Shown here: piece after piece, positions 2,445 through 27,071 of the stretch
Layout of the letters: every line of letters begins with the position of its first letter
Position numbering within the stretch: position 1 is the first letter of the stretch
DNA from: Thermosulfurimonas dismutans
GTDB taxonomy: Bacteria; Desulfobacterota; Thermodesulfobacteria; Thermodesulfobacteriales; Thermodesulfobacteriaceae
Assembly (NCBI RefSeq): GCF_001652585.1
Contig: NZ_LWLG01000001.1
Span: forward strand, 150,001-182,000
Direction of reading: 5' to 3'
Length of the DNA: 32,000 bases
Program-made: the position numbers and the translations under genes
The notes under the pieces: generated by a model
What the model saw: only the letters and a program-made list of their open reading frames with translations
Database searches by the model: none
What the model was told of the DNA's origin: nothing

Positions 2445-2889
2445 TTTTAACCTCACCAGCAAGCTCTTCTATAAGTCTAAGTCTCCTTTCGTGTCGGTCC
2501 CCTTCAAAGGGGGTCTCAAGGAAGATCTTCACAAGCTCAAGGGCCAGGGCCTCTCCTACCACTCGCCCCCCCATAACCAGCACATTGGCGTCGTTATGGA
2601 GACGGCTCATACGAGCGGTGTAACAATCACAACAGAGGGCCGCCCTTATACCGGGGAACCGATTGGCCGTAATGCTCATTCCGATGCCGGTCCCGCAGAT
2701 GAGGATACCTCTTTCTGCCTCGCCAGATAGGATCTTTTTAATGGCCTCAACTCCAAAAACCGGATAATCCACGGACTCGCAACTCCTACAGCCCACATCC
2801 AGGATCTCGTGCCCTTGCGTCTCAAGATAGGCCTTGATCTTCTCCTTCAAGCTAAACCCTGCGTGATCTGAAGCCAGAACGATCTTCAC
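2437..2889 (-). CDS. rpiB: ribose-5-phosphate isomerase B
   Basis: 150 aa with typical RpiB/LacAB family sequence ([12 protein letters not shown]..., [12 protein letters not shown]). GTG start. Confidence 0.92.
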
Positions 2890-2901
2890 TTCAGTTACCC
2901 C

Positions 2902-4140
2902 TTATTCCTCAAACTTCTTGAAGACCAAAACCGCGTTTGTGCCCCCGAAACCAAAAGCGTTTGACATAGCCACCCGCACCTCTGTGCGCCGGGCCTCATT
3001 GGGAACATAATCCAAATCACACTCGGGATCCGGTTCCTCATAATTGACGGTAGGCGGAATAATATCCTCGTACACAGTTTTCACCGTAAAGACGGCCTCA
3101 AGCCCTCCGGCCCCACCTAAAAGATGCCCGGTCATGGATTTGGTGGAAGATATTGCCAGACGATGGGCGTGATCTCCGAAGACCTTTTTGATAGCCTTAG
3201 TCTCGGCGGCGTCATTAAGGGGAGTACTAGTCCCATGAGCATTGATGTAGTCCACATCCTGGGGCTTAAGGCCAGCATCTGAGAGAGCCATCTCCATACA
3301 CCGGGCCGCACCCTCGCCTTCCGGATGCGGGGCTGTCATGTGATAAGCATCCGCATTAAGTCCATATCCTACAATCTCAGCGTAAATCTTCGCCCCACGG
3401 GCCTTGGCGTGTTCTAGAGATTCAAGGACGAGGATACCGCAACCCTCGGCGATCACAAAGCCATCCCGTTTGGCATCAAAGGGACGGCTTGCCCGCTGTG
3501 GCTCGTCGTTACGGGTGGAAAGGGCCTTCATAATAGCAAAGCCGCCCACCGAAAGGGGAGTTATAAGGCTCTCCGTCCCCCCGCAGATCATGACCTCCGC
3601 CAAACCCTCCCGAATAAGACGAAAGGCCTCCCCAATAGCATGGTTGCCGGCAGCACAGGCCGTACAGACCGCCGTGTTAGGTCCTTTCGCCCCGAAGAGG
3701 ATAGCCACCTGCCCAGCCGCCATGTTAGGAATGACCATAGGGATGAAAAAGGGTGTAATCCGGCGGTAACCCTTTTCCCGTACAACGAGGCTGTAATTTT
3801 CAACCACACCCATGCCCCCCATGCCCACTCCAATGATGGCCCCGGCGGAAGGACCAAGATCCGAGGTAGGAAGACCCGCGTCCTCAAGGGCCATGCGGGC
3901 GGCGGCAATGGCGTATTGAATGAAAGTATCTATTCGGGAAACTAGTTTTCGAGGCATGAACTCCTCGGGCTTAAAGCCCTTGACCTCACCCGCAATCCTT
4001 GAGGGAAGCTCTGAGGCATCAAACTTGGTAATAGGGCCAATTCCGGACTCTCCGGCCACGGCCCGCTTCCAGGTCTCCTCTACCCCGATGCCTAGGGGGG
4101 AGACTGCTCCCAATCCTGTAACCACCACCCGCCGTCTCAC
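2902..4140 (-). CDS. fabF: 3-oxoacyl-ACP synthase II
   Basis: 412 aa. KAS II motifs are present: active-site Cys in AVCTACAAG, His in the NAHGTSTP and [12 protein letters not shown] regions, and a C-terminal [11 protein letters not shown]. Confidence 0.96.
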
Positions 4141-4153
4141 GTAGGCCCTCCTA

Positions 4154-4387
4154 TTACTTGACCCGTTCTTTGATATAGTCTAACACATCTTTTACAGTGC
4201 GTAGCTTCTCCGCTTCCTCGTCCGAGATCTCCATACCGAATTCCTCCTCCATAGCCATCACCAGTTCTACCAAATCCAGGGAATCCGCCCCGAGATCATC
4301 CACAAAGGATGCCTCCGGTTTGACCTGATCCTCAGAAACATTAAGTTTCTCGGCGATGATCTTGATGACCTTCTCCTCTACGGACAT
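4154..4387 (-). CDS. acpP: acyl carrier protein
   Basis: 77 aa with the phosphopantetheine attachment motif [13 protein letters not shown]. It sits between fabG and fabF. Confidence 0.96.
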
Positions 4388-4420
4388 CGCATCCCTCCTT
4401 ACCCAATTGGATTTGGAAAG

Positions 4421-4449
4421 CTTCTAGCCTATTTTAAAAGTTTTTTCAA
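4421..4449 (-). promoter_or_regulatory. candidate sigma70-type promoter for acpP-fabF
   Basis: On the minus strand: TTGAAA, a 17-nt spacer, then TAGAAG. It lies in the 70-nt fabG-acpP gap, upstream of an AAGGAGGG ribosome-binding site. The -10 is weak. Confidence 0.25.
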
Positions 4450-4457
4450 TATCTCGC

Positions 4458-5201
4458 TCACCAAAGGCCTCCGTTCACGTGGAGGACCGTGCCCGTAATG
4501 TAGGAGGCCTTATCCGAGGCTAAAAAGACCACGGCGTGGGCTACCTCTTCCGGGGTACCGGCCCGGCCCATAGGAACCTGCGAAAGAAGCGCCTCCCGGG
4601 CCTTCTCCGGAAGAGCCGCGGTCATGTCCGTCTCGATATACCCCGGGGCCACCACATTGACCGTAATACCCCGTCGGGCCACCTCAAGGGCCAGAGACCG
4701 GCTGAAACCTACCAGACCAGCTTTCGAGGCCGCGTAATTGGTCTGTCCGGGATTGCCGGAAAAAGCCACTACCGAGGAAATATTGATAATACGTCCATCA
4801 CGGCGTTTCATCATCCCCGGAAGCACGGCTTTCGTTACCAAAAACGCACCCTTGAGATTTACCGAAAGCACCCGTTCCCAATCCTCGTCCTTCATACGCA
4901 CCAGTAAGCCGTCCCGGGTAATCCCGGCGTTGTTCACCAAAATGTCAATCCGGCCAAAGGCCTCCTCCACGGCCTTCACCCCTTCGGCCACGGCGGAAGG
5001 GTCTGCCACATCGAATTTGACCAAGAAGGCCCTGCGGCCCAGGGACTCGATCTCGCGGGCGACCTCTTTAGCAGCCTCTTCCGAGACCGCATAGTTCACC
5101 GCCACATCCGCTCCGGCCCGGGCCAGTTCCACCGCCACCGCCCGGCCAATACCCCTTGAGGCCCCGGTAACCAGGGCCACCTTGTCCTTAAGAAGCTCCA
5201 T
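4458..5201 (-). CDS. fabG: 3-oxoacyl-ACP reductase
   Basis: 247-aa SDR with TGASRGIG, NNAG and YxxxK (YAASKAG) motifs. Standard fab-cluster position. Overlaps the etfA stop by 14 nt. Confidence 0.94.
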   Translation of the reverse strand: MELLKDKVALVTGASRGIGRAVAVELARAGADVAVNYAVSEEAAKEVAREIESLGRRAFLVKFDVADPSAVAEGVKAVEEAFGRIDILVNNAGITRDGLLVRMKDEDWERVLSVNLKGAFLVTKAVLPGMMKRRDGRIINISSVVAFSGNPGQTNYAASKAGLVGFSRSLALEVARRGITVNVVAPGYIETDMTAALPEKAREALLSQVPMGRAGTPEEVAHAVVFLASDKASYITGTVLHVNGGLW

Positions 5202-6189
5202 CTCTTCCCTCCTTTATCTCCCGGATTCGGCGAATCAAAAGGGGGAGAATACGAGTGGCATCTCCCACCACCGCTATATCAGCTCGCTGCATCAGGGTGG
5301 CCTCGGGATCGGTGTTGACCGCCACTACCACTTCCGAACCTTCCATGCCAACGGTATGCTGAAGGGCTCCCGAAATCCCAAAACCGATATAAAGCCGTGG
5401 AGCCACGGTCTCTCCGCTCACCCCAATCATATGCTCCTCTGAGATCCAGCCCAGATGACAGACCGGCCTGGTAGCCCCCACCGCTCCGGAAAGGAGCTTA
5501 GCTAGTTCGTGGAGTTTTTCAAAATTCTCTTTGGTAAGGAGACCTCGGCCACCGGCCACCACCACCTTGGCCTCAGAAAGGGGGCTTTCCTTCCGTGGAA
5601 CAGGATAAACGGCCCTGCGTCTCAGAACGCTTTTGGGAACCTCTGAGAGCCTGATCTCCTCGGGTTCTCCCTCTCCAGAGGCCTGTGGTTCGGCCTTAGG
5701 GAAGACCCCCGGACGAACGGTGGCCATCTGGGGCCGGGTTTTTGAGACGATTTTGGCCATGACGTTTTCCCCGAAAGAGGGACGAATCTGGATCAGCCGG
5801 GCCTCATCGTCAACCTCAAAGGCTATACAGTGGGCCGTAAGCCCGAGCCCGAGAAGACCGGCCACCCGCGGGGCTAGGGCCTGGCCCTCAGCCGTGGCCC
5901 CGAAAAGAAAGACCGAAGGATCTCTTTCCTTTATCGCAGCAGCCAGAATTTCGGCGTAAAGATCGTCCCGAAAATATGAAAGCTCGGGATGAATGAAAAG
6001 GAGGACCTTTTCCACCCCGTAGCGAAAAAGTTCCCGGGCAGCCTCTCTAAGATCATCCGTCCCTAAAACTACCACCGTGACCTTTTCGGCAAGTTTCGGG
6101 GCTAGCCTCCGAGCCACGGAAATGAGCTCATAGACCACCGGATGGAAACCATTCTCTCCCCATTCCCCATAAATCCAGAAACCGCCCAT
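5188..6189 (-). CDS. etfA: electron transfer flavoprotein, alpha subunit
   Basis: 333 aa. C-terminal FAD-binding region (VVAGGRG..., GISGALQHTVGM, VVAVNTDP). GAGGAGG ribosome-binding site upstream. Confidence 0.92.
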   Translation of the reverse strand: MGGFWIYGEWGENGFHPVVYELISVARRLAPKLAEKVTVVVLGTDDLREAARELFRYGVEKVLLFIHPELSYFRDDLYAEILAAAIKERDPSVFLFGATAEGQALAPRVAGLLGLGLTAHCIAFEVDDEARLIQIRPSFGENVMAKIVSKTRPQMATVRPGVFPKAEPQASGEGEPEEIRLSEVPKSVLRRRAVYPVPRKESPLSEAKVVVAGGRGLLTKENFEKLHELAKLLSGAVGATRPVCHLGWISEEHMIGVSGETVAPRLYIGFGISGALQHTVGMEGSEVVVAVNTDPEATLMQRADIAVVGDATRILPLLIRRIREIKEGRDGAS

Positions 6190-6998: not shown

Positions 6999-8153
6999 CT
7001 AGTCCCGATAATACTTAAGTAATTCCCGAGCAATGACGTTACGCTGGATCTCATTGGTGCCCTCGTAGATCTGAAGGCACTTGGCATCTCGCATCATCTT
7101 CTCCGCGAGAAAATCCCGCATATAACCATAGCCTCCCATCATTTGGACCGCCCGTTCGGTAACCCACATGGCTACATCAGTGGCAAAGGCCTTGGCCATA
7201 GCCGAGGGACCGGAGATCTCTTTGGCCCCGGCGTCAATATTTTTGGCCGTCTGATAGACCAGACTTCTGGCGGCCTCGATCCGCATGGCCATTTCGGCAA
7301 AGGTATGACTTACGGCCTGAAAGTTGTAAATCGGCTGACCGAATTGCACTCGCGTACGGGCGTGTTTTAGGGCCAACTCCATGGCCCCCTGCGCCAGGCC
7401 CACGGCCTGAGCTCCTACCCCGACGCGAGCGTAATCTAGGGTTTTTAGAGCTATAATGAAACCCATGCCTTCCCGTCCAAGGAGCCGATTCTTGGGGATG
7501 CGGCAGTTGGTAAAAAAGAGCTCCGTGGTTACTGAGGCTCGAAGGCCCATCTTCTTCTCCTTGCGTCCCACCGAAAACCCGGGGTCTCCGCGCTCCACGA
7601 TGAAAGCACTGGCACCGCGGGCCCCCTTTTTGAGATCCGTAAGGGCAATCACGATGTAAATATCGGCGATACCACCATTGGTAATCCACTGTTTGATGCC
7701 GTTTAGGACGTAATAATCACCGTCCTGTTCGGCCCGGGTTTGAATGGCCGCCGCGTCGCTTCCGGCCTGGGGTTCCGTAAGGGCAAAAGCGCACAGCCTG
7801 CGTCCCGCGGCCACCTCCGGAAGATATTTCGCCTTCTGCTCCTGGTTCCCGAAAAGGAGAATAGGGTAGGCCCCAAGGAAACTCGCGGCGTAAGTAGTAG
7901 CCACCCCGGTACAATATTTAGAAAGATGTTCCACCGCCAGACATAGAGCAAAGCTACCAAAACCTAGTCCTCCGTATTCCTTCGGGATGACCACCCCTAA
8001 AAGATCAGCCTTTGCAAGGGCCCTTATGGGGCGGGGATCATAAGTCTCCTCTTCATCCCAATCCCTAGCATAAGGCAAAATGTATTCTCGTCCGATCTGG
8101 TTTACCAGATCCACTAGGATCTCTTCTTCCTCCGAAAGAAAATACGAAAGCAT
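6999..8153 (-). CDS. acyl-CoA dehydrogenase (short/medium-chain, butyryl-CoA dehydrogenase-like)
   Basis: ACAD family throughout, with the catalytic-base context IYEGTNEIQR. I prefer the second ATG at 8153 (MLSYFLSEEEE) because AAGAGGAGG lies 6 nt upstream. The ORF-track start at 8180 adds 9 aa. Confidence 0.9.
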   Translation of the reverse strand: MLSYFLSEEEEILVDLVNQIGREYILPYARDWDEEETYDPRPIRALAKADLLGVVIPKEYGGLGFGSFALCLAVEHLSKYCTGVATTYAASFLGAYPILLFGNQEQKAKYLPEVAAGRRLCAFALTEPQAGSDAAAIQTRAEQDGDYYVLNGIKQWITNGGIADIYIVIALTDLKKGARGASAFIVERGDPGFSVGRKEKKMGLRASVTTELFFTNCRIPKNRLLGREGMGFIIALKTLDYARVGVGAQAVGLAQGAMELALKHARTRVQFGQPIYNFQAVSHTFAEMAMRIEAARSLVYQTAKNIDAGAKEISGPSAMAKAFATDVAMWVTERAVQMMGGYGYMRDFLAEKMMRDAKCLQIYEGTNEIQRNVIARELLKYYRD

Positions 8154-8200
8154 ACTGGGCCTCCTCTTGAGAACCTGCATGCTTTACCATATAAGAAATT

Positions 8201-9079
8201 ATGGAATTTTTAAAGATTACCTTCCCCAATTCGGGAGTCCAAACTTACCTCTTCATTCCTCCGTTGGTAAGCTTTGGACTGGCCTTTTTTGGGGTCATGG
8301 GCGGAGTGACTGGGGCTTTTCTGCTTCTACCCTTTCAGTTCTCCGTACTCCACTATACCTCTCCAGGGGTTTCGGCTACCAACCTCCTTTATAATCTCTT
8401 CACCATTCCTCCGGCCCTCATTCGCTACCGCCGCGAGGGACGTTTTCATGTCCCTCTGACTGTAGTCATGATACTTGGTACCACACCAGGGATGTTTTTG
8501 GGATATCTTTTACGGCTCAAGATCTTCCAAGACCCCGCACGTTTCAAACTCCTGATCGGCCTAGTTCTTCTCTACCTCGCAATCCAGATATTGAAAAACC
8601 TCCTCACCAGTTCCCGTTCCGTTCATACCTCAAGCAAGATCCTGATTCTCCGTTCCAGTCCGCAAAAGCTGATCTTCTCCTTTGGGGAAAAGACCTACGA
8701 GATTCCGGTGATTTTCACCTGGGGGGTGAGCTTTCTAGTGGGCATCATAGGCGGAGCCTATGGCATCGGTGGAGGTGCCATCCTGGCGCCTTTCCTGATT
8801 TCGGTTCTCCGGCTACCGGTACATGCGGTCGCCGGCTCGACACTTGCCACCACCTTTCTGGCCTCGCTCTTCGGACTCTTCGTTTATGGCTTCGGCCCAG
8901 GATCCGGACCGGATACCCGACCGGATCTGCTTCTCGGAAGCCTCTTCGGTCTCGGAGGCATTATTGGAGCTTACCTAGGAGCCCGGTTCCAGAAACGCAT
9001 CCCTGAGCGTCCCATCAAATGGGGACTCTTCGGAACGCTACTTTTTATAGCTTTGAAATACCTCTTCGGAGCGTTTTAA
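8201..9079 (+). CDS. TauE/SafE-family (sulfite/anion exporter-like) membrane protein
   Basis: 292 aa, polytopic and hydrophobic, with two Gly-rich half-repeats (GVMGGVTGAF... and GIIGGAYGIGGGAILAPF) typical of the TauE/DUF81 family. Confidence 0.8.
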   Translation: MEFLKITFPNSGVQTYLFIPPLVSFGLAFFGVMGGVTGAFLLLPFQFSVLHYTSPGVSATNLLYNLFTIPPALIRYRREGRFHVPLTVVMILGTTPGMFLGYLLRLKIFQDPARFKLLIGLVLLYLAIQILKNLLTSSRSVHTSSKILILRSSPQKLIFSFGEKTYEIPVIFTWGVSFLVGIIGGAYGIGGGAILAPFLISVLRLPVHAVAGSTLATTFLASLFGLFVYGFGPGSGPDTRPDLLLGSLFGLGGIIGAYLGARFQKRIPERPIKWGLFGTLLFIALKYLFGAF

Positions 9080-9126: not shown

Positions 9127-10377
9127 ATGTCTCGCTTTACCCCCAGAGATCTGGACCGTAAAGTGTATGAGGCGGTCTTCACCGAAGGTCCGGAAAAGGA
9201 AAAGAGGCTCCTTGAGCTAAAGGGGTTTGCCAAGGAACTGGGGGCCCGACTGGCTTCCATCTATCCCCTTTATCGCGAAATGGCCCAGAAATTTCTGGGC
9301 TTCACTGTGCCGGCCATAAACATTCGGGGGATGACCTATGATGTGGCCCGCACCCTCTTCCAGGTAGCCAAAGAACTCAAGGTTGGAGCGCTCATCATTG
9401 AGATCGCCCGTTCTGAAATGGGTTATACCAAACAAAGACCCTTGGAATACGCTACCGTGATCCTCTGCGCTGCGGCTCGGGAAGAATTTCCGGGGCCGGT
9501 CTTTATCCAGGGAGATCACTTTCAGGCCAACCGCAAGGCCTATCTAGCAAATCCCGAAGCCGAAAAAAAGAACCTGAAAAACCTCATTCGAGAAGCTCTG
9601 GCGGCCGAATTCTACAACCTAGACCTTGACGCCTCCACTTTAGTAGATCTATCCCAAAAAACCCTTGAGGAACAGCAACGACCGAATTACGAGCTTACTG
9701 CTGAACTTGCGGCCTATGTACGTTCCCTTGAACCGGAGGGGGTTACCGTTAACCTGGGGGGGGAGATCGGTGAGATCGGGGGCCACAACAGTCGCCCAGA
9801 GGAACTCCGAGCCTTTATGGACGGCTTCAACCGTTGTTTTACGGAAAAAGTGGGACTTTCCAAAATTAGCGTCCAGACCGGCTCAAGCCACGGTGGTATA
9901 GTCCTCCCAGACGGCTCGGTAGCCAAAGTTCAAATAGACTTTGAAACTCTGAAACTCCTTTCAGAGATTGCCCGTCGTGAATACGGTATGGCTGGGGCCG
10001 TTCAGCATGGGGCTTCCACCCTTCCAGAAGAATATTTCGGAATCTTCCCGGAGGTGGGATGTGCAGAAATACACCTGGCCACCGGTTTCCAAAATATCAT
10101 CTTTGACCATCCGGCTCTTCCCAAAGATTTCCGCCAGAAGATTTATCAGTATCTCAAGGAGAATTTGCGAAACGAGTGGAAGGAGGGACAGAGCGAGGCC
10201 CAATTTATCTATCGCACCCGCAAAAAGGCCTTTGGCATATTTAAAAAGGAGTGGTGGGACCTTCCGGAAAAAGCAAAGAAGCCTATCCTAGAAACATTGG
10301 GGGAGACCTTCGCCAAAATCTTCAAGGCCTTAAAGGTTACGGAGACCCTTGACATGGTCAAACACATCATTGCTTAG
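9127..10377 (+). CDS. class II (metal-dependent) fructose/ketose-bisphosphate aldolase family protein, long form
   Basis: 416 aa. Class II aldolase landmarks are present (IQGDHFQ, GEIGEIGG, SSHGG, QHGAST). AGGAGG lies 7 nt upstream of the ATG. Confidence 0.8.
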   Translation: MSRFTPRDLDRKVYEAVFTEGPEKEKRLLELKGFAKELGARLASIYPLYREMAQKFLGFTVPAINIRGMTYDVARTLFQVAKELKVGALIIEIARSEMGYTKQRPLEYATVILCAAAREEFPGPVFIQGDHFQANRKAYLANPEAEKKNLKNLIREALAAEFYNLDLDASTLVDLSQKTLEEQQRPNYELTAELAAYVRSLEPEGVTVNLGGEIGEIGGHNSRPEELRAFMDGFNRCFTEKVGLSKISVQTGSSHGGIVLPDGSVAKVQIDFETLKLLSEIARREYGMAGAVQHGASTLPEEYFGIFPEVGCAEIHLATGFQNIIFDHPALPKDFRQKIYQYLKENLRNEWKEGQSEAQFIYRTRKKAFGIFKKEWWDLPEKAKKPILETLGETFAKIFKALKVTETLDMVKHIIA

Positions 10378-10801
10378 ATGGGGATCTTTCAGGAGAATAC
10401 ACGACCGCAAGTGTTCTTCCGATAATCAAAAGTAGAATAGCTCCGGCCCATAACATGGTATCAAGCCCTTCAATTTTGCCTTCGAAGATATACAGCAACA
10501 TCTCTCGAAGACAGAAGGCTATTACGACTTCCACCAAGATTTCCAGCCTAACCCTATCATGCTCAAAATAGTCCACAAAAGCTCTAACCAACTCCAAAAC
10601 CACTATTAGAGACAAAACATTGGTAATCAAATCCTTGAAACCCAATCTAATGGTGGGTTCAGTGATAGTAAGACTAATTTCAAAGAGCGTTCTAATGATA
10701 CCTACCACCAAAGCTATCAAAAGGGCAAAAATGATAACACAAAAAACAACATCGATTACCCAGCCATACATAACATGAAGCTTATTTTTTCTAGGCCTCA
10801 T
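10367..10801 (-). CDS. PsiE-like (phosphate-starvation-inducible E family) small membrane protein
   Basis: 144 aa with four predicted TM helices. The LELVRAFVDYFEHDRV... region resembles the PsiE family. Overlaps the pfk stop by 11 nt and the aldolase 3' end by 11 nt (convergent). Confidence 0.6.
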   Translation of the reverse strand: MRPRKNKLHVMYGWVIDVVFCVIIFALLIALVVGIIRTLFEISLTITEPTIRLGFKDLITNVLSLIVVLELVRAFVDYFEHDRVRLEILVEVVIAFCLREMLLYIFEGKIEGLDTMLWAGAILLLIIGRTLAVVYSPERSPSKQ

Positions 10802-12140
10802 TTTTCAACCTCCGCTGTCCTGTAGATTCTAAGACCGAGAGCCAGAAGCGGCTGTGAACGTTCACTTGTTTGCGTTTCTTGACGGCCTCGGAAAGGGGAA
10901 TGTGCACATAATGATGGTTCAGATAACTTATCATGAGGCCAGTCTTTCCGGCCATAGCTGCATGCACAGCATATTGCCCCAGGAAACCACAGTAGATCCG
11001 ATCATCCACCACGGCCGGGACACTGCGAATGATGTAACTGGGATCTATATAACGTACATAAACCTCGATACCCTTTTGTGAGAAATACTCCTTGATGCGA
11101 TCTCTAAGAAAGATTCCGATATCGCCGAGTTTAAGATTGCCGGAGGCGTCGTATTCGGGTTTTTCGCCCTGAACGTATTTCTGTCCGGCGCCCTCGGCTA
11201 CCACGATCACGGCGTGCTTGCGTTCGGCAAGACGTCTTTCGAGGGCTGCCAGCAACCCTCCGGGGCCTTCGAGATCGAAGTCTTCCTCCGGGATAAGGCA
11301 GAAGTTGACCTCTTTGGTGGCCAGGGTGGCCGCGGCTGCGATGAAACCCGAGTACCGGCCCATGACCTTGACCAGGCCGATTCCGTTCGGGGCACCGATG
11401 GCCTCGGTGTGGGCACAGCGAATGGCCTTGCAGGCCTCCTCCACCGCGGTCACAAAACCGAAGGTCCGCGAGACCAGCCAGATGTCGTTATCAATGGTCT
11501 TCGGAATGCCCACCACCGCGATCTTCAATCCCCGGTGGGCGATCTCTTCCTTGATCTTGGTAGCCGCCCGGAAGGTGCCATCGCCCCCGATCATGAAAAG
11601 GATGTTTACGTTCATGCGCTCAAGGGCATCCACGATCTGGTCGATGGGCTGATGTCCACGGGAGGTCCCCAGGAATGTGCCACCGAGTTCGTGAATCTGA
11701 GCCACCACCTCTGGGGTGAGCTCCACCACATCATGGCCATAGCTTGGAATGAACCCCTGAAGTCCGTATTTGATGCCATAGATGTGTCTCACACCGTAGG
11801 AATGATAAAGGGTCAACACGATGGAACGAATGACATCGTTTATGCCGGGGCAGAGGCCACCACAGGTGACAATGGCCGCCCGGGTCTTGGCGGGATCGAA
11901 ATAGATATAGGGCCTCGGGCCCGCAAGCTCTGCCGAGGGTATCCTTCCCTCCTTTTTAAAGGCCTCCCTAAGGGAACCCTCCGAGACCCTCAAAGAGACC
12001 CGCATATCATCGGTTATAAAACAGACCTCTGGAAGCCGCAGGGGATTTTCTATCCGGCACGGGCCGAGATTCTCGATCTCGGTATTAATCTCCTCGGAGA
12101 TCTCTTCTAGAAAGTCAGGAAGAATACAGGTATTCCGCAT
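10791..12140 (-). CDS. 6-phosphofructokinase (long, group III-like; phosphoryl donor ambiguous)
   Basis: 449 aa. PFK-A family motifs are present: TCGGLCPGINDVIR, MIGGDGT, GIPKTIDND and VMGRYSGFIA. The ATG lies 2 nt after the upstream SDR stop, and a GGAGG sits in the SDR 3' end. Confidence 0.9.
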   Translation of the reverse strand: MRNTCILPDFLEEISEEINTEIENLGPCRIENPLRLPEVCFITDDMRVSLRVSEGSLREAFKKEGRIPSAELAGPRPYIYFDPAKTRAAIVTCGGLCPGINDVIRSIVLTLYHSYGVRHIYGIKYGLQGFIPSYGHDVVELTPEVVAQIHELGGTFLGTSRGHQPIDQIVDALERMNVNILFMIGGDGTFRAATKIKEEIAHRGLKIAVVGIPKTIDNDIWLVSRTFGFVTAVEEACKAIRCAHTEAIGAPNGIGLVKVMGRYSGFIAAAATLATKEVNFCLIPEEDFDLEGPGGLLAALERRLAERKHAVIVVAEGAGQKYVQGEKPEYDASGNLKLGDIGIFLRDRIKEYFSQKGIEVYVRYIDPSYIIRSVPAVVDDRIYCGFLGQYAVHAAMAGKTGLMISYLNHHYVHIPLSEAVKKRKQVNVHSRFWLSVLESTGQRRLKNEA

Positions 12141-12142
12141 TA

Positions 12143-13060
12143 TTAACCTCCCTCTTTCGTAAAAAGATTCCTAATGGCTTCTTCGAGACGGGGATAGGAA
12201 AACTCGAACCCTAATTCAAGAAGCCTTTTGGGCCTGGGCCGGCAACTCGTGCTCAAAACCGTCCCGACTTCACCTAGAACGAATTTCAGGAGCTTGACCG
12301 GCAAGGGCAGGAAGGCCGGTCGTCTCAGGACGCGACCTAAGGTACGGGCAAACTCTTTCTGTCGCACGGCCTCCGGGGCCACCAGATTGAAGGGCCCCGA
12401 GGTCTCCTCCCGGCGGGCGAGAAATATGATGGCCGAAACCAGATCCTTCACGTGAATCCAAGGAAACCATTGGCGGCCATTCCCGATGGGGCCTCCCAGA
12501 CCAAGCTTGAAGGCTGGAAGCATCTTGAGCAGGGCCCCACCGTCCGGCCCTAACACGATTCCAAATCTTCCAACACAGACCCTGAGACCCCGCCTCTGCC
12601 ACTTTAAGGCCTCCGCCTCCCACTCTACGCACACCCGAGCCAAAAAGTCCTTTCCCGGGGGATGGGTTTCGTCTACGGCTTCCTCGCCGGTGTCCCCATA
12701 ATATCCTACCGCAGAAGCATTAAAGAGGACTCTACCCTCTCCCCCGATGAGAGCCTCTGCCAGGAATCGGGTTGAAAGCACCCGCGACTCAAGGATTAGC
12801 CGTTTGTATCCCTCGTTCCAGCGGTGGAAGATATTGGCCCCCGCAAGATTGATCCCGATTTCACACTTAGAGGCCTCCTCCTGCCACTCCCCGGGCACAC
12901 AGGCATCCCCGAGAACCGGCCGAACCTTTTCGGGAAGACGCGCGATCCTCTTGCGACTCCTCACCAGGGCCCAAACCTCATACCCTTGCTCCACCAGGGC
13001 CCCTACCAGATGGCGACCGATAAATCCCGTGCCTCCCACCACAAAGACCTTTGAGCCCAT
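12143..13060 (-). CDS. TIGR01777/SDR39U1-type epimerase-family NAD(P)-binding protein (YfcH-like)
   Basis: Rossmann motif VFVVGGTGFIGRHL plus a DUF1731-like C-terminus. I prefer the ATG at 13060 (MGSKVFVVGG), which follows a GGGGGA ribosome-binding site. The ORF-track start at 13099 adds 13 aa. Confidence 0.8.
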   Translation of the reverse strand: MGSKVFVVGGTGFIGRHLVGALVEQGYEVWALVRSRKRIARLPEKVRPVLGDACVPGEWQEEASKCEIGINLAGANIFHRWNEGYKRLILESRVLSTRFLAEALIGGEGRVLFNASAVGYYGDTGEEAVDETHPPGKDFLARVCVEWEAEALKWQRRGLRVCVGRFGIVLGPDGGALLKMLPAFKLGLGGPIGNGRQWFPWIHVKDLVSAIIFLARREETSGPFNLVAPEAVRQKEFARTLGRVLRRPAFLPLPVKLLKFVLGEVGTVLSTSCRPRPKRLLELGFEFSYPRLEEAIRNLFTKEGG

Positions 13061-13147: not shown

Positions 13148-14199
13148 ATGATTTCGAGCTATCTCGTAATACTGTGGCAAATGATACTTGAAAGTGCTCC
13201 CTATCTTTTGATAGGGCTGTTCATAGCAGGGCTTCTTAGGGCCTTTTTACCTCAGGAATTTCTGGCACGACATTTGGGGGACAACTCTTTAGGTAGTGCC
13301 TTTAAGGCCGCCCTGTTCGGTATTCCACTTCCGCTCTGCTGTTGTGGAGTATTACCCACAGCGGTCTCTTTGTATCGGCAGGGAGCTAGTCTTTCGGCTA
13401 CCTTTGCCTTCTTAGTAGCTACTCCTCAAACCAGCGTAGATGCTATCCTTCTGGCCTATGGACTCCTTGGAGGTATTTTCGCAATAGCTTACCCAGTTTC
13501 CGCCCTTTTCGGAGCTTTTTTGACCTCACTAGCCATGGTGATTTTTATTAAAAGTACGTCCAAGGTCCTAAGTCCGGTCTTTTCCTGTGCAATGTGTAAC
13601 GAAGAAACCCCACACACTCACCCCTTCGGAGAGAAAGTCACCTTTGCCCTGCAATATGCCGTAACGGAACTTTTTGCCGAGATAGCAAAACCCCTCCTTA
13701 TAGGATTCCTCGCGGCTGCTCTGGTAGCCCTGATATTGCCCCCTAATCTCGCTGAAAGCCTCTCAGCCCACGGCCTTACCTACCCGGCCATGCTTGTCAT
13801 CGGTCTCCCTCTTTACGTCTGCGCCACAGCCTCCATTCCGCTGGGATACGCCTTTTTACTTAAAGGTTTCAGTCCCGGAAGCGTCCTGGTTTTCCTCATG
13901 GCCGGTCCCGGAACCAACCTTACTTCTTTAAGCGTCCTTTCAAAGATCTTCGGAAAAAAGTAACTGGGATTTATCTCGTGGTCCTCTCACTTGCGGCTTT
14001 ACTTTCGGGAATCATCCTCGACAGTCTGGTAGGTGAAATTCGGCCAAAGGCCCTTACCCCAAAGCAAGAAACCCTTGGTTTCTTGCACTTCCTTGCCGCC
14101 TTAATACTCTTACTACTCTTCCTACACCATTTCATTAGGCAAAGACTTTTGGACAAGAAAAACCATGATCCCATCTGCGGTTGCGGCTGCGGAGATTAG
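13148..14199 (+). pseudogene. COG0701/ArsP-like metal permease, split by a frameshift in an A6 run (ORFs 13148..13963 and 13978..14199)
   Basis: The first ORF ends ...LSVLSKIFGKK*. The adjacent frame continues VTGIYLVVLSLAALLSGIILD..., which is the expected final TM helix. One extra A in the run at 13954-13959 would fuse the two ORFs. There is a membrane CCCG motif (PLCCCGVLP) and a C-terminal CGCGCG tail. Confidence 0.75.
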
Positions 14200-15362
14200 T
14201 CCACCACCGAAAAGCCCTCAAGCTTGTGCTTCCAAAAACCCGTAGCCCGAGGATAGATTTTGGCAAATTCCACCCTGAGATAACCATCTTCCCATCTCAC
14301 CGAACGGATTTCGATTCTCACCTGCGCGTGACGAAAATGGGCCAGCAGGGCTTGAAAGGCCTTCTCCGTACGGAATCGGGCCCGGAAAATCTCCGTCACC
14401 GGCTCGCCACCATCCACTTTATGAAGCAACTCCGAAAGACCCCCTAGCATCTTACGGCCCACTCTGGCCAGATCCTCTTCGGCCGGGCCTCCGAAAAGCT
14501 CCCACTGGCTTATGAAATACCTCACCAGCCGGTGAGTCACATATTCCGGGGGTACCTCTCCGAGATAAGGGAAAACCACCCGGAGATCCTCAAGGTTCGA
14601 AATGGGCGTCACATACTTGACGTAAGGGCCACCGGAAGCCGGCTTTAGGACTACCCCTTCACGCCCTTCGGCCTCATAGCGTCTAAGGAGTTCCTTGAGT
14701 GGAGAAAGTTCCCCGGGATCAAAGGGGCCGTTTATCTCGGGATGAGGGAACCCGTAAGTCTCAAGCAACTGGTATTTTTCCTTCGGGGGAAGCAATTCTC
14801 CCGAGGGCAGGCGCATGAAATCGAACACAAAAAACCGCACATCTTCCCTGATGTAAGGCGGCCATTCACTTACAAAGGGGTTCTCCGGGCCAGCAACCTC
14901 GGCACAGACACAGAGGTTGGGATAAGTTTCAAAGAATTCCTCAAGATGCGGCAAAAAATCTGGAAAACGATCGGTGGCAAAGGGACAGACGAAACCGCGT
15001 CTAGTTACAGCTAGGATCTCATCTTCCACCTTGAAAAGCCTTATGTTATAGCCCTCGATCTTTTCTTCGGCGTAGAAAAATCCGGAAAAATAGCGTGGAA
15101 CGCCGGCGGTGAGCCTGAAGATTCTCGGAATACGTGGGAAACCTGGCACAAAGAGATCCTTTGAGAAAACCGTCCCCTCAAGGAAGCCCTTAAAAGCCCG
15201 TCTTATCCGGAAAAGAGGCTTTGAGACCCCAGAAAGCGGAAGCACCCGTCCTTCTCTGAGGGCTTCCCGCCACGTCTCCTCAGGGAGCCTGCGCAAGAGA
15301 GAATTGTACTTCCAGATTTGGGAAAGTTTTTCCCACTGTTCCTCAAACAATCGGGGTTCCAT
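14196..15362 (-). CDS. ATP-dependent RNA ligase, Rnl3 / Pab1020 family
   Basis: 388 aa, collinear with the archaeal Pab1020-type ligase as I recall it. Nucleotidyl-transferase lysine motif EEKIEGYNIR (K101 by my count), plus TRRGFVCPF, CAEVAGPENP, EGREGVVLK, VKYVTP and a C-terminal ...GFSVVD. Confidence 0.85.
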   Translation of the reverse strand: MEPRLFEEQWEKLSQIWKYNSLLRRLPEETWREALREGRVLPLSGVSKPLFRIRRAFKGFLEGTVFSKDLFVPGFPRIPRIFRLTAGVPRYFSGFFYAEEKIEGYNIRLFKVEDEILAVTRRGFVCPFATDRFPDFLPHLEEFFETYPNLCVCAEVAGPENPFVSEWPPYIREDVRFFVFDFMRLPSGELLPPKEKYQLLETYGFPHPEINGPFDPGELSPLKELLRRYEAEGREGVVLKPASGGPYVKYVTPISNLEDLRVVFPYLGEVPPEYVTHRLVRYFISQWELFGGPAEEDLARVGRKMLGGLSELLHKVDGGEPVTEIFRARFRTEKAFQALLAHFRHAQVRIEIRSVRWEDGYLRVEFAKIYPRATGFWKHKLEGFSVVD

Positions 15363-16383
15363 TTACTATAACCTCGCCTGTTCTTCCTTCCTGGCCCCGA
15401 ATCTCGATTTTGGCCTCCGGGAGAAAGTGGCTTATGACCCAAGCGTTGGTCAGGAGATGGCGGGTGATTTTCGGAGTCACATAAAAGGTCTGGCCTTCAG
15501 CGAGAGCTGCCGGAAGAAGAATCTGATCCGCAAGATATTCGTCCACCGAAGCCCGGGCCCTCATGGTTTCAAGATAAGGCCGAACAGCCTCCTCAGCCAC
15601 CCTCTCAGCCGGTTTACCTCTGGCCCCTAAGGCAAAATAGCCGATCCTCTTGATCTCATCTTGGCCCCACACTCCCACAAAGGTTCCTGGGGAAGCACTC
15701 TTTACACTTTCAAGCCGAACCTCACATGCGAGACCGGCCTCCCTGAGGAGTTTTTCGGCCCTCTGGGCTTGGCGTCTTCGGATATGATCCGGAAGGTCCG
15801 AGGTCACCACCGAAAGCACGGAGGTGGCTTCGGGTGAAAAAGGAGGCTCAAGTCTGATACCCGATAAGGTCTCCAGGGGCCCAATTTCAGCCAGAATCTC
15901 ACCTCCACCTACGGGATAGAAACCGTAGCGCCGGATCTCAAGCCTTGCCGAAAATCCCATGGCCGAAAGCACCGGCAGGAAGACCTCCGCGAGATAGTGG
16001 AAGCACGGACTCATCGGTACGTGGGTTCCCCCGCGTAGGATGAGGCGTCCACCGCCGGCGATGGCCAAAAGCAGATAGAGGGTCTGAAAGAGAAGGCCAG
16101 TGGCCCCGGCGGTCCCAATGTCAAAGGTATAGGCCCCAGGACGGAGCCTTCCGGGGACGAATAGCAGGTCCATGGAGCCCCTTTCGGCCCCGGAGACCTC
16201 GGCTTTCCCAAGGCGGGCCGCGGCCTTCACACAGGCCAGATGTTGCGGTCTGAGACCGGGTTTAGGACGTCCGGCCCGAATGTTTATCAGTCGAAAAGGC
16301 TTCTGGGTAAGAAGTGAAAGGGTAAGAGCGGTACGAAGAATCTGCCCCCCACCCTCACCGTAAGAACCATCGATGGTCAACAA
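15343..16383 (-). CDS. rtcA: RNA 3'-terminal phosphate cyclase
   Basis: 346 aa with the RtcA N-terminal signature IDGSYGEGGGQILRTALTLS and PGLRPQHL. TTG start 6 nt after a GGAGG. The 3' end overlaps the RNA ligase start by 20 nt. Confidence 0.92.
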   Translation of the reverse strand: MLTIDGSYGEGGGQILRTALTLSLLTQKPFRLINIRAGRPKPGLRPQHLACVKAAARLGKAEVSGAERGSMDLLFVPGRLRPGAYTFDIGTAGATGLLFQTLYLLLAIAGGGRLILRGGTHVPMSPCFHYLAEVFLPVLSAMGFSARLEIRRYGFYPVGGGEILAEIGPLETLSGIRLEPPFSPEATSVLSVVTSDLPDHIRRRQAQRAEKLLREAGLACEVRLESVKSASPGTFVGVWGQDEIKRIGYFALGARGKPAERVAEEAVRPYLETMRARASVDEYLADQILLPAALAEGQTFYVTPKITRHLLTNAWVISHFLPEAKIEIRGQEGRTGEVIVNGTPIV

Positions 16384-16386
16384 GGC

Positions 16387-17328
16387 CTACCTCCGGTGAC
16401 AGGCCACCATATGTCTCGGGCCTATCTCCCGAAGCTCTGGAGCAGTTTTTCGACAGATTTCCACGGCCTCCGGGCAACGAGGATGGAACACGCACCCCGG
16501 GGGCAGACGCAGAAGGCTGGGAGGTTCTCCGATGGTCTGCGGCCCCTTTCTCTTCCTACGCCCCGGAACGGAAGAGAGCAAAAGTTCCGTGTAGGGGTGG
16601 AGCTTGCCATTCAAAAAAACATCCCGCGGGCCGATTTCCACGACCTCTCCAAGATACATCACCCCCACACGATCACTCATGAAAAGGACCACCGGAAGAT
16701 CGTGGGAGATGAAGAGATAGCTCAAACCGAATTGATCCTTTAGGTCCTTGAGGAGGGTAAGGATCTGGGCCTGGACGGAGACATCCAGAGCCGAGGTCGG
16801 TTCATCGAGCACGATGACTCTAGGCCGGGAGATAAGAGCCCGGGCCAGAGCCACCCTCTGCCGCTGGCCTCCAGAGAGTTGATGGGGAAAACGCGGAAGA
16901 ACATCCGCCGAAAGCCCTACCATTTCGATCAGTTTTTCGGCTTCCTCACGGGCCGTCTTCCGGTTGACTCCCTGAAGCCTCAAAGGCTCGGATACCAAAT
17001 CCTCTATCTTTTTGCGGGGATTTAGAGAGGCCGCTGGATCCTGGAAAACCGCCTGAAACTTGGGCCGCAAACGCTTCCGCTCTCCACGAGCAAGAGTCCA
17101 AAAATTATGGCCCAAGAAAAGAACCTCTCCAGCATCTGGGGCCTCAAGGGCCAGGGCAATCCTCGCAAGGGTGCTCTTGCCGCAACCGCTCTCTCCCACC
17201 AGCCCTAAAACCTCGTTTTCAAAAAGACTCAAACTAACCCCTCTCAAAACCCGCAAGCTCTCCCCCCGACCGAAAAACCGGCGCAGACGATAACTTTTCT
17301 CCACCCCTTTAAGTTCCAGAACCTTCAT
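16387..17328 (-). CDS. oligopeptide/dipeptide-type ABC transporter ATP-binding protein (OppF/DppF-like)
   Basis: Walker A GESGCGKST, signature LSGGQRQR and Walker B VIVLDEPTSALD. The Opp C-terminal extension carries four Cys. The ATG at 17328 forms an ATGA overlap with the OppD-like stop. Confidence 0.9.
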   Translation of the reverse strand: MKVLELKGVEKSYRLRRFFGRGESLRVLRGVSLSLFENEVLGLVGESGCGKSTLARIALALEAPDAGEVLFLGHNFWTLARGERKRLRPKFQAVFQDPAASLNPRKKIEDLVSEPLRLQGVNRKTAREEAEKLIEMVGLSADVLPRFPHQLSGGQRQRVALARALISRPRVIVLDEPTSALDVSVQAQILTLLKDLKDQFGLSYLFISHDLPVVLFMSDRVGVMYLGEVVEIGPRDVFLNGKLHPYTELLLSSVPGRRKRKGPQTIGEPPSLLRLPPGCVFHPRCPEAVEICRKTAPELREIGPRHMVACHRR

Positions 17329-18323
17329 CTTCTGAAACACCGCACCGCGTGTCCTGGGCCCACCGGCCTCATCTCGGGATGTTCCTCTTCACACCGGAGC
17401 TCCCTTTCCCGGCACCTCGGGGCAAAGCGACAACCCGCGGGCCATTTTCCCGGAGAGGGAACCTGTCCCGGAAGGAGCCGGAGCTTCCGAGTACCGAATT
17501 CCGGGCGGGCGGAAAGCAGGGCCTCAGTATAGGGATGCCGGGGATTTTCAAAAAGCTCGTCTTTGCCAGCCACCTCCACCACCTCCCCGGCATACATTAC
17601 CGCTACCCGGTCGGCCACCTCTCTTATAAGGGCAAGATCATGAGAGATGAAAAGAATGGCTAATCCACGCCTTTCGCGAAGCTCGAGTAAAAGATCCAAG
17701 ATCTGGGCCTGAACAGTAACATCAAGGGCGGTGGTAGGCTCATCAGCCACTAGGAGTTCGGGCTCTCCGGCTAGGGCCATAGCGATCATGGCCCGCTGAC
17801 GCATTCCTCCAGAAAGCTCATGGGGATAGTTCCTGATCCTGGTCTCTGGATCGGGGAGCCTTACTTCGGAAAGAAGCCTTATAGCTTCCGCGCGGGCAGC
17901 TTCCCCTCGGAGTCCTCGATGAAGCTTTAGGACCTCCTCTATCTGGTAGCCTACGGTAAAGACCGGATTCAGGGCGTTCAAAGGTTCCTGAAAGATGAGG
18001 GCCACCCGCCGGCCTCGGTAGGCTCGAACCTCCTTCTCAGGTAGGCAAAGCAGATCTTTTCCCTTGAAAAGGACGCGACCGGAAAAGGGTTTTACACCCG
18101 AGGGAAATAGTCCGAGACAGGCTAGGCCCGTAAGGCTCTTTCCACAGCCGCTCTCCCCCACTAGCCCCAGGATCTCACCGGGGAAGATCTCAAGATCTAC
18201 TTTATCGAGAAGGGCATATCTCTTCGGTATGAAACACAGGCCTAAGGCTTCGATCCGAAGGAGGGGAACTCCCTCCCTAGCTCTAGGCTCAACCGCCGCC
18301 ACACCGTCTGATCTCGGCTGCAA
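17325..18323 (-). CDS. oligopeptide/dipeptide-type ABC transporter ATP-binding protein (OppD/DppD-like)
   Basis: Walker A GESGCGKS, signature LSGGMRQR and Walker B LLVADEPTTALD, with a Cys-rich C-terminus. The TTG at 18323 lies 5 nt after an AGGAG. A GTG at 18302 is an alternative start. Confidence 0.88.
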   Translation of the reverse strand: MQPRSDGVAAVEPRAREGVPLLRIEALGLCFIPKRYALLDKVDLEIFPGEILGLVGESGCGKSLTGLACLGLFPSGVKPFSGRVLFKGKDLLCLPEKEVRAYRGRRVALIFQEPLNALNPVFTVGYQIEEVLKLHRGLRGEAARAEAIRLLSEVRLPDPETRIRNYPHELSGGMRQRAMIAMALAGEPELLVADEPTTALDVTVQAQILDLLLELRERRGLAILFISHDLALIREVADRVAVMYAGEVVEVAGKDELFENPRHPYTEALLSARPEFGTRKLRLLPGQVPSPGKWPAGCRFAPRCRERELRCEEEHPEMRPVGPGHAVRCFRR

Positions 18324-18777
18324 GGATCTCCTGGGGAGTAGCTTCCCTTACAGCCTCAATCCGAATCTTCAGAAGAACGTTTTTCCCAGCAGCAGGATGA
18401 TTAAAATCCGCCTTCACTTTTTTGTCCGATACTTCAAGAACCTTGAAGAAGGTCTTCTGTCCGTAAGGGCCTACCTCTTCATAGTAAGATCCAGGTTTTA
18501 CCTTGTCCGGATGTTTAAGCCTCTCCAGGGGAATCTCCTTTACCAAGTGGGCCTGATACGGACCATAGGCCTGTTCAGGGGGAACGCGAACTGTAATCTC
18601 ATCGTTCTCTTTAGCACCCGAAATAGCCTGCTCGATCAGGGGTAGCACTGGCTCTCGCCCAAAGATGAAGGTAGCTTGAAGCGGTCTCTTGAACCAATCC
18701 GGCGCCTCTTCACCTTCAATATCCAGGGAATAAGTAAGAGTTACCACTTTATCTTGCCCAACCGTAAGTCCTTCCAT
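18289..18777 (-). CDS. FKBP-type peptidyl-prolyl cis-trans isomerase, SlyD-like (with insert-in-flap region)
   Basis: About 162 aa. Typical SlyD/FKBP2 pattern: VVTLTYSL..., FIFGRE..LP.IEQAI.G, AYGPY, FNHPAAGKNV. I prefer the ATG at 18777 after AAAGGGGG. The ORF-track start at 18792 is a TTG. Confidence 0.85.
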   Translation of the reverse strand: MEGLTVGQDKVVTLTYSLDIEGEEAPDWFKRPLQATFIFGREPVLPLIEQAISGAKENDEITVRVPPEQAYGPYQAHLVKEIPLERLKHPDKVKPGSYYEEVGPYGQKTFFKVLEVSDKKVKADFNHPAAGKNVLLKIRIEAVREATPQEILAAEIRRCGGG

Positions 18778-18934
18778 AAAACCCCCTTTCAATATTCCGG
18801 TAACGTCAATTTTCTATTTAACCTCTCATTACCCCCAAGTCAATCGACTTCCCTAATCGAAAATAGTGACTATTTTTTGTACGCCGGAAGCCTTAAAATA
18901 GGGGGGGATAACAAAACAGACATTAAATTTAGAC

Positions 18935-18963
18935 TTGACACAAACTTAAAATTGTTCTATTTA
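18935..18963 (+). promoter_or_regulatory. candidate sigma70-type promoter for the peroxiredoxin gene
   Basis: TTGACA (18935-18940), a 17-nt spacer, then TATTTA (18958-18963). An AGGAGG at 18985-18990 lies 8 nt before the ATG at 18999. Confidence 0.4.
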
Positions 18964-18998
18964 AAAAGTCACCAAAAATATAAAAGGAGGTGTAAATT

Positions 18999-19607
18999 AT
19001 GTGCATTAGGCCAGGTTTAGTAGCTCCGGATTTTGAAGCCCAGGCTTACGCCGATGGACAGATTAAAACCCTCAAACTTTCAGACTTTCGAGGCAAGTGG
19101 GTGCTTCTGGTGTTTTACCCCGCAGATTTTACTTTTGTGTGTCCTACGGAGCTGGTAGCTATCGCTAAAAAGTATCAAGATCTCAAGAACATGAACGTTG
19201 AGGTCCTGGGGATTAGTATCGACACGCCTTTTGTTCACAAGGTCTGGCAGGAGATGGAGCTCTCCAAGATGATCGAGGGTGGAATACCCTATCCCCTGGT
19301 TTCCGATCCGGCTGGGAAGATCGGCCAGCTTTACGGAGTCTATGATGAAAAGGCCGGAATAAACCTTAGGGGTACCTTCCTTATCGACCCCGATGGAGTC
19401 ATCCAGTTCATGGATATCCTCAACGCCCCGGTAGGCCGGAACGCCGATGAGTTAGTACGTCGCATCAAGGCCTTTCAGCATGTAAGGGAGACCGGAGGGG
19501 CGGAAGTGTGTCCAGCCCACTGGGAACCCGGGAAACCAACCCTGAAACCTGGGGCCGAACTTGCAGGCAAAGTTTACGAGACCTGGAAGGCTGAACTCAT
19601 CGATTAG
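18999..19607 (+). CDS. ahpC: typical 2-Cys peroxiredoxin (AhpC/Prx1 type)
   Basis: 202 aa. Peroxidatic Cys in FTFVCPTE and resolving Cys in EVCPAHW. Confidence 0.93.
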   Translation: MCIRPGLVAPDFEAQAYADGQIKTLKLSDFRGKWVLLVFYPADFTFVCPTELVAIAKKYQDLKNMNVEVLGISIDTPFVHKVWQEMELSKMIEGGIPYPLVSDPAGKIGQLYGVYDEKAGINLRGTFLIDPDGVIQFMDILNAPVGRNADELVRRIKAFQHVRETGGAEVCPAHWEPGKPTLKPGAELAGKVYETWKAELID

Positions 19608-20807: not shown

Positions 20808-20909
20808 GGCTGCCGGGTCCTGCGCGACGGATCCCGGTGAACCCCGCCAGGCCCGAAAGGGAGCAACGGTAGCCGGGCTCTCCGGGTGCCGCAGGGGTAC
20901 CCGGCAGCC
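20808..20909 (+). ncRNA. ffs: signal recognition particle RNA, small (4.5S) type
   Basis: A long hairpin closed by GGCTGCCGGGT...ACCCGGCAGCC. The apex CCAGGCCC-GAAA-GGGAGCAACGG matches the conserved domain IV: GNRA tetraloop, AGCA symmetric-loop motif and the 5' CCAGG. Ends are accurate to within a few nt. Confidence 0.88.
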
Positions 20910-20916
20910 GTAAAGC

Positions 20917-21012
20917 GGAAGCGCCAGGGGCCTGGTGGCCCCCCCGGGCTTCAAACCCGGTGCACCGTCGGAGACGGCGGTGGGTGGGTTCGATTCCCAT
21001 GCGCTTCCGCCA
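20917..21012 (+). tRNA. selC: tRNA-Sec (anticodon UCA), 96 nt with encoded CCA
   Basis: 8-bp acceptor stem GGAAGCGC/GCGCTTCC. 6-bp D-stem GGGGCC/GGCCCC with a 4-nt loop. Anticodon loop CTTCAAA with TCA at positions 34-36. Long variable arm (GCACCGTCGGAGACGGCGGTG). T-arm GTGGG-TTCGATT-CCCAT, discriminator G, then CCA. This is the bacterial 8/5 Sec architecture. Confidence 0.92.
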
Positions 21013-27055: not shown

Positions 27056-27071
27056 GATCCACCTCCATCAA

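Follow-up and report, generated by a model that had tools for sequence, protein, structure and literature searches.

The stretch analysed here (hereafter the window) comprises 32,000 nucleotides (nt) of the Thermosulfurimonas dismutans genome (NCBI RefSeq assembly GCF_001652585.1, contig NZ_LWLG01000001.1, positions 150,001 to 182,000 of the forward strand); window positions below count from its first letter. Its minus strand carries two overlapping genes: rtcA encodes an RNA 3'-terminal phosphate cyclase; rnl3 encodes an ATP-dependent RNA ligase. The following features define the pair.

15343..16383, minus strand: rtcA, RNA 3'-terminal phosphate cyclase, 346 amino acids, TTG start (open reading frame list and profile matches)
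14196..15362, minus strand: rnl3, Pab1020/MthRnl-type ATP-dependent RNA ligase, 388 amino acids, ATG start (open reading frame list and profile matches)
15343..15362, minus strand: 20-nt overlap between the rtcA stop codon TGA (15345..15343) and the rnl3 start codon ATG (15362..15360), read from the sequence
15372..15375, minus strand: GAGG, Shine-Dalgarno-like, 9 nt 5' of the rnl3 ATG and within the rtcA coding sequence
16390..16394, minus strand: GGAGG Shine-Dalgarno motif, 6 nt 5' of the rtcA TTG (16383), read from the sequence

Profile and structure comparisons show that the product of 14196..15362 is a full-length Rnl3, with catalytic K101 and motifs III-V intact. The open reading frame (ORF) scored 302.1 bits against TIGR01209 (cut-off 136.9), 66.4 bits against Pfam RNA_ligase PF09414 (4.4e-18; cut-off 27), and 92.2 bits against Lig_C PF18330, the Pab1020 C-terminal region, of which it matched positions 1-124 of 125 (3e-26; cut-off 25). 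Residues 28-387 aligned with residues 7-369 of 3qwu (1e-72) and residues 61-387 with residues 60-388 of Pab1020 (2vug, 3.3e-70), with further matches to the solved structures 8uce (6e-67) and MthRnl (5d1o, 7.5e-34). Like these archaeal enzymes, the ligase is collinear over its full length and has all nucleotidyltransferase motifs and a Pab1020-type C-terminal domain; it differs from them in its bacterial host and in motif I, where AEEKIEGYN, containing the motif I lysine K101, matches VEEKVDGYN of Pab1020, so that KIEGYN stands in place of the archaeal KVDGYN. In an alignment of 15 diverse homologues, K101, F180, D181, E235, G236 and K249 were invariant and K240 was nearly so. The Glu for Asp replacement in motif I is found throughout the class, including the one lineage in which the ligase is not linked to rtcA, and therefore does not track the pairing. 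Compared to the Aquificota homologues, the aligned ligase is extended at its N-terminus by about 25 residues.

The product of 15343..16383 is, by the same kinds of evidence, a bona fide RtcA that keeps all of the catalytic residues. It matched the Pfam models RTC (1.5e-75) and RTC_insert (1.8e-11) and reached 360.1 bits against TIGR03399 (cut-off 250), compared to 45.9 bits against the Rcl1 model TIGR03400 (cut-off 228), which distinguishes it from the non-catalytic Rcl1 paralogues. Among solved structures it is closest to PDB 4o89, an RNA 3'-phosphate cyclase from Pyrococcus horikoshii (2.5e-68). E10, R17, R36, H48 and H309 were invariant in an alignment of 38 sequences (37 operon RtcAs and Escherichia coli RtcA), R39 and Q47 are present by reading of the window sequence, and H309 aligns with the nucleophile His of the E. 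coli enzyme (His309 in the numbering of PMC3854526). The initial annotation, made from the sequence alone, had named both proteins and the catalytic lysine of the ligase, and the profile scores, structure alignments and invariance of K101 bear out these assignments.

The 3' end of rtcA reads GGC GAG GTT ATA GTA AAT GGA ACC CCG ATT GTT TGA, with the ligase ATG inside it, and the 20-nt overlap proposed initially is exact. Translational coupling, proposed at the same time, is likely in view of the overlap and the GAGG inside rtcA. The rtcA gene is itself tightly packed against the gene that precedes it, because its GGAGG motif abuts the TAG stop codon (16389..16387) of an ABC ATPase gene.

A scan of species-representative genomes returned 566 relatives of the ligase, and the best 80 of these 566 loci were analysed, with RtcA and the ligase placed in each locus by tblastn. 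Ligases with at least 45% identity were classed as Thermodesulfobacteria-type; this class held 46 loci, including the window, 44 of which had enough upstream sequence to be judged. The rtcA gene lay upstream of the ligase gene on the same strand in 38 of these 44, directly abutting it in 37, and this repetition among related loci places the adjacency far beyond chance. The possibility, raised beforehand, that the arrangement was peculiar to this one genome is thereby removed. With the start codon closest to the aligned ligase N-terminus used to define the junction, the two genes overlapped by 7-23 nt in 33 of the 38 linked loci (14 nt in 22, 20 nt in five, 17 nt in three, 23 nt in two and 7 nt in one), and gaps of 4-64 nt separated them in four. 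In most loci, motifs of the GGAG/GAGG type, such as GGAGAGGT and GGGGAGGT, were found at a comparable distance 5' of the ligase start. The sole case in which the genes are co-oriented and split (L023) has a 511-residue multi-pass membrane-protein ORF (4391-5926, about 1.5 kb) between rtcA and the ligase gene; this locus is labelled as an uncultured Thermodesulfatator metagenome-assembled genome, and its ligase groups with the Thermodesulfobacterium type on the tree.

Independent gene calls in the complete Thermosulfurimonas marina genome (CP042909.1) give the order FKBP, ABC, ABC, RtcA (10001-11041), ligase (11022-12188) and a convergent ArsP gene, with a 20-nt rtcA/ligase overlap as in the window, and none of the called genes within 10 kb on either side of this pair matched PF01139 (RtcB). 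The FKBP-ABC-ABC order of the window was also found in loci L002, L004, L011 and L013-L015. Upstream ABC ATPases are restricted to the Thermosulfurimonas/Thermodesulfatator group, where they occur with ArsP, and they lie outside the conserved core. The Thermodesulfobacterium loci have a creatininase-family gene upstream and a gene for a cysG N-terminal domain downstream, and in Caldimicrobium fabG is upstream of rtcA. Thus the flanks are replaced, but rtcA and rnl3 stay paired, in the same order and overlapping, in loci where identity has fallen to about 47% for the ligase and 46% for RtcA.

On the ligase tree (neighbour-joining, no bootstrap), all of the rtcA-linked ligases form one clade, whose sister is Thermosulfuriphilus. 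The Thermosulfuriphilus ligase gene is convergent with a gene for HARP, and the approximately 950 nt of upstream sequence examined there contained no rtcA. An adjoining rtcA was likewise absent from all sampled ligases of Aquificota, Nitrospirota, Planctomycetota and archaea, most of which are beside HARP. We recognized HARP as a recurrent convergent neighbour (cluster c6) that matches TIGR03875, "RNA ligase partner protein", with 228 bits (cut-off 95). It shared a locus with the ligase in 22 loci, none of them rtcA-linked, and was also beside the ligase in four more distant contexts, namely a bacterial locus with 42% identity, a planctomycetotal locus, an archaeal locus and an unassigned sequencing-run contig. 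Neither the window nor any of the rtcA-linked loci gave a match to PF08745/TIGR03875. HARP is a protein-only RNase P that co-occurs with Rnl3, often as a convergent neighbour within 5 kb (Seshadri & Gopalan 2025, PMC12153264); that paper does not mention RtcA, and its Table S1 gives Caldimicrobium, Thermodesulfatator and Thermosulfurimonas as HARP-positive and ligase-positive, "not co-localized". Consistent with this table, our HARP search recovered proteins of T. indicus, T. dismutans, T. commune and Caldimicrobium, with the HARP gene convergent with lptE-leuS in Thermodesulfobacterium commune and Caldimicrobium (L088, 4582-6582; L089, 6001-7115). We therefore rejected the idea that RtcA stands in for a missing HARP.

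Since the rtcA-linked ligases form one clade with a HARP-linked sister, and HARP is encoded elsewhere in these genomes, the pattern points to one relocation of the ligase gene from HARP to rtcA. According to the tree, the pairing originated a single time, at the base of the Thermodesulfobacteria following the split from Thermosulfuriphilus, and was then retained for a long time as an overlapping unit. An apparent independent linkage in Aquificota, with rtcA 3-6 kb upstream of the ligase gene (L073 and L065), was rejected, as the intervening ORFs look, by sequence reading, like the housekeeping genes gyrA and purQ; the gyrA-like ORF of L065 (Aquificaceae; 330-5171) has 1613 residues and, by reading, two intein-like insertions that the 779-residue orthologue in L073 does not have. 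One contig binned as 'Candidatus Heimdallarchaeota' (L010, JAMOVR010000164.1) encodes a Thermodesulfobacteria-type ligase with 57% identity that nests within the bacterial clade, and is probably mis-binned.

The initial annotation had set the pair against rtcA-rtcB linkage, stating that bacterial rtcA normally sits with rtcB. That premise was overstated, as linkage to rtcB is the exception in bacteria. Of two close relatives of this RtcA outside the class, one has a methyltransferase gene as its neighbour and the other has a divergently oriented RtcB gene 1.4 kb away. Because rtcA elsewhere has such other neighbours, "instead of RtcB" is the weaker contrast; "instead of HARP", the usual ligase partner that had been overlooked, is the sharper one.

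Comparison with known systems shows where the pair departs from each of them. In E. coli-type rtcBA, a GTP-dependent RtcB joins 3'-phosphate and 5'-OH ends, while the present ligase belongs to the ATP-dependent, lysine-AMP Rnl3 type, for 3'-OH and 5'-phosphate ends. The cyclase gene also comes first here, and there is no RtcR, CARF domain or nearby sigma-54 activator; where rtcBA forms a stress-inducible unit under RtcR/sigma-54, the present cassette is found in housekeeping operons. In line with the initial annotation, a search for RtcR found none in the window, and in other loci RtcR matched the AAA+ core alone (RtcR residues approximately 190-435); the sigma-54 activators near some loci were accordingly rejected as RtcR candidates. 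RtcB was similarly absent from the window and from 82 loci searched with E. coli RtcB by tblastn. The HARP-Rnl3 pair involves the same ligase family, and both HARP and the ligase are reported for the organisms here (PMC12153264). The two genes of that pair typically converge and lie no more than 5 kb apart, whereas here HARP is encoded elsewhere and the ligase gene is co-directional and overlapping with rtcA. The T4 Pnkp-Rnl1 and bacterial Pnkp-Hen1 systems also encode an ATP-dependent RNA ligase alongside an enzyme that alters the ends of RNA, but a Pnkp-type enzyme removes cyclic phosphates, whereas the end-modifier here creates them. Pfam annotation of the ORFs in the window found no Pnkp or 2H phosphoesterase, and Pfam matches and neighbour clusters in about 45 loci found no kinase, phosphatase or 2H/HD phosphoesterase conserved near rtcA-rnl3. 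With cyclic phosphates created and no kinase or phosphatase, RtcA and Rnl3 alone therefore cannot form a linear pathway.

The biochemistry of the two families gives some indication of what they may do together. Rnl3 enzymes circularise single-stranded RNA (ssRNA) with 5'-phosphate and 3'-OH ends; they do not ligate 3'-phosphate or cyclic-phosphate ends, yet they cyclise 3'-phosphates, and their 3'-deadenylation activity leaves a ligation-blocking 2',3'-cyclic phosphate (PMC5599603). A mismatch between the end chemistries of RtcA and Rnl3 had been pointed out initially; it is weaker than had been stated, in that Rnl3 itself makes 2',3'-cyclic phosphate ends (PMC5599603). The Rnl3 authors further speculated on doubly capped AppRNA>p species (PMC5599603), AppRNA being 5'-adenylylated RNA. 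For its part, RtcA cyclises 3'-phosphates quickly and 2'-phosphates slowly (PMC3854526).

In our view the best explanation, which we hold with moderate confidence, is a two-gene RNA-end-modification cassette whose co-made enzymes would work as two parallel branches in the upkeep of RNA ends at high temperature. RtcA and Rnl3, both ATP-dependent, would be made together from one mRNA and would act on complementary 3' ends. Rnl3 would seal or circularise RNAs bearing a 5'-phosphate and a 3'-OH, and RtcA would turn the 3'- or 2'-phosphate ends that Rnl3 is unable to join into 2',3'-cyclic phosphates. The cyclic ends could then be shielded, kept from being ligated, or handed on to an enzyme with its gene elsewhere (RtcB, for example), with the outcome that free RNA ends would be either sealed or capped. 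The genes and their conservation are secure, and the joint function of RtcA and Rnl3 is putative.

Several observations weigh against such a shared role. Because the adjacency originated only once, the 38 loci do not count as independent events; genes that overlap are, mechanically, less easily parted, which inflates the apparent conservation; the cassette sits amid unrelated housekeeping genes, and co-transcription by itself is no proof of a shared pathway. In addition, one subclade inside the rtcA-linked clade (L006, L009, L012 and L016) has lost the adjacency, indicating that it is dispensable. These points lead to the strongest alternative, an operon kept by descent only, in which one rearrangement joined two genes whose overlap and shared transcript are costly to split, and the enzymes work on unrelated RNAs. 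Pure inheritance has to be taken seriously as a rival, given the single origin and the resistance of overlapping genes to separation, and it is consistent with the varying membership of the surrounding operons and with the assorted unrelated neighbours of rtcA elsewhere. We consider it possible, though clearly less probable than the cassette, as the two genes have kept their order and their overlapping junction through the replacement of both flanks over the range of protein identities given above, and two ATP-dependent nucleotidyltransferases that act on RNA termini with overlapping chemistry would be an unlikely coincidence for a random pair.

A stronger version of the shared-function reading is that RtcA and Rnl3 constitute a bacterial pathway of their own, not described before, in which RtcA took over from HARP the function of ligase partner. 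For example, the two enzymes may jointly set the fate of RNAs with a 5'-phosphate, such that those with a 3'-OH are circularised, and those with a phosphorylated 3' end are converted to linear RNAs that resist exonucleases, carrying a 2',3'-cyclic phosphate and perhaps also a 5'-App cap. We regard this as doubtful; if true, it would represent an RNA-end protection or circularisation system of thermophilic bacteria, and the first RtcB-independent cellular role for RtcA.

Heat-driven RNA cleavage yields 2',3'-cyclic phosphate and 5'-OH ends, an established chemistry that gives a heal-and-seal route some appeal. In this scheme, RtcA would normalise such breaks, enzymes encoded elsewhere would open the cyclic phosphate, dephosphorylate it and phosphorylate the 5' end, and Rnl3 would join the products in the manner of T4 Pnkp-Rnl1. 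Classic ligases do require healed ends, and RtcA makes mixed 2'-phosphate and 3'-phosphate ends uniformly cyclic (PMC3854526). However, none of the healing enzymes that were looked for is conserved near the pair in any of the approximately 45 loci, and cyclising a 3'-phosphate leads away from the 3'-OH required by the ligase, which makes this route improbable. Least probable of all, and with nothing found in support of the initial annotation's proposal of it, is an AppRNA hand-off in which RtcA would 5'-adenylylate RNA that Rnl3 then seals to a 3'-OH: the RtcA activity exists, Das & Shuman (2013) include 'AppRNA for a separate ligase' among speculative roles of RtcA, and a Palaeococcus Rnl3 is reported, as cited in PMC12153264, to be weak at the sealing step, but RtcA adenylylates at 0.18 per min, approximately 1e5-fold slower than it cyclises 3'-phosphates (PMC3854526), and an external supply of AppRNA is unneeded because the ligase keeps its own lysine and all motifs for adenylylating RNA, and the Palaeococcus enzyme is, according to the same citation, a strong substrate adenylylator.

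Judged by its arrangement, the rtcA-rnl3 cassette is a real operon with one evolutionary origin that has long been kept, and its mechanism is inferred. Its interest lies in the unsettled roles of both enzymes. The reaction of RtcA looks 'wasteful' beside RtcB (Das & Shuman 2013), and bacterial Rnl3 has no known substrate, HARP being the sole partner proposed so far. Our findings qualify the HARP-ligase story, in that the ligase of one bacterial class left HARP and joined RtcA. Bacteria are not known to have C/D-box small RNAs (sRNAs). For the archaeal Rnl3 enzymes, circularisation of ssRNA and of C/D-box sRNA substrates is reported (PMC12153264, PMC5599603). An overlapping rtcA-rnl3 operon in cultivable thermophiles, candidates being Thermosulfurimonas marina, Thermodesulfatator autotrophicus and Thermodesulfobacterium hydrogeniphilum, offers a natural system in which to ask whether cyclic-phosphate formation is coordinated with 3'-OH/5'-phosphate sealing, and whether bacteria contain Rnl3-dependent circular RNAs. 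What is described is a single-origin arrangement of known enzymes. The literature that we covered, which excluded the main survey of RNA-repair gene neighbourhoods (Burroughs & Aravind 2016) so that an earlier mention is possible, held no paper linking RtcA genetically with Rnl3/Pab1020, and none mentioning RtcB together with Thermodesulfobacteria.

In the window, three further genes precede the pair on the same strand.

18289..18792, minus strand: FKBP-type isomerase (Pfam match)
17325..18323, minus strand: Opp/Dpp-type ABC ATPase (Pfam match)
16387..17340, minus strand: Opp/Dpp-type ABC ATPase, 3 nt from rtcA (Pfam match)

The ends of these five co-oriented genes (FKBP, ABC, ABC, rtcA and rnl3) overlap or are 3 nt apart, and the isomerase and both ABC ATPase genes probably share a transcript with rtcA-rnl3. 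A promoter and terminator scan of 13900-19100 gave counts at the level of the shuffled background. Among models of anti-phage defence, none matched RtcA or Rnl3, and the ABC ATPases matched generic ATPase parts alone. Downstream, an ArsP-family permease gene on the plus strand converges on the 3' end of rnl3. It is split into a 271-residue ORF (13148..13963) and a 73-residue ORF in another frame (13978..14199), and the break adjoins a run of six A residues at about 13953-13958; the T. marina orthologue is intact, with 351 residues. The split reflects either a frameshift in what is now a pseudogene or an error in sequencing the homopolymer.

In the Thermodesulfobacterium/Caldimicrobium subclade (L017-L042), a conserved NUDIX hydrolase gene (about 7750-8330, minus strand) lies downstream of the ligase gene and convergent with it, past the gene for the cysG N-terminal domain, which overlaps the ligase 3' end. 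The hydrolase scores below all equivalog thresholds. Some NUDIX enzymes remove 5' RNA caps, and a link of this one to AppRNA is conceivable. At its separate locus in T. commune, the HARP gene is directly downstream of a gene for a beta-CASP/RMMBL metallo-beta-lactamase ribonuclease, a possible alternative RNA-processing partner for HARP.

Elsewhere in the window there is a tRNA-Gln at the start (165-239, minus strand), and a small bacterial signal recognition particle (SRP) RNA (73.6 bits) is followed directly by a tRNA-Sec (82.9 bits, anticodon TCA) at 20811-21012 on the plus strand. The SRP RNA, tRNA-Sec and tRNA-Gln are not adjacent to rtcA-rnl3, and we rejected them as linked substrates of the pair. 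The tRNA-Sec indicates that the organism evidently uses selenocysteine. Finally, at 25259-29990 on the minus strand, a sodium:solute symporter gene precedes those for an RNase T-type exonuclease and a CBS/DUF294 nucleotidyltransferase and a cyclic nucleotide monophosphate (cNMP)-binding ORF. This stretch has a G+C content of 0.36-0.44, compared to about 0.53 elsewhere, and may be acquired DNA; the combination of symporter, exonuclease, DUF294 and cNMP-binding genes is a recurrent one in bacteria.

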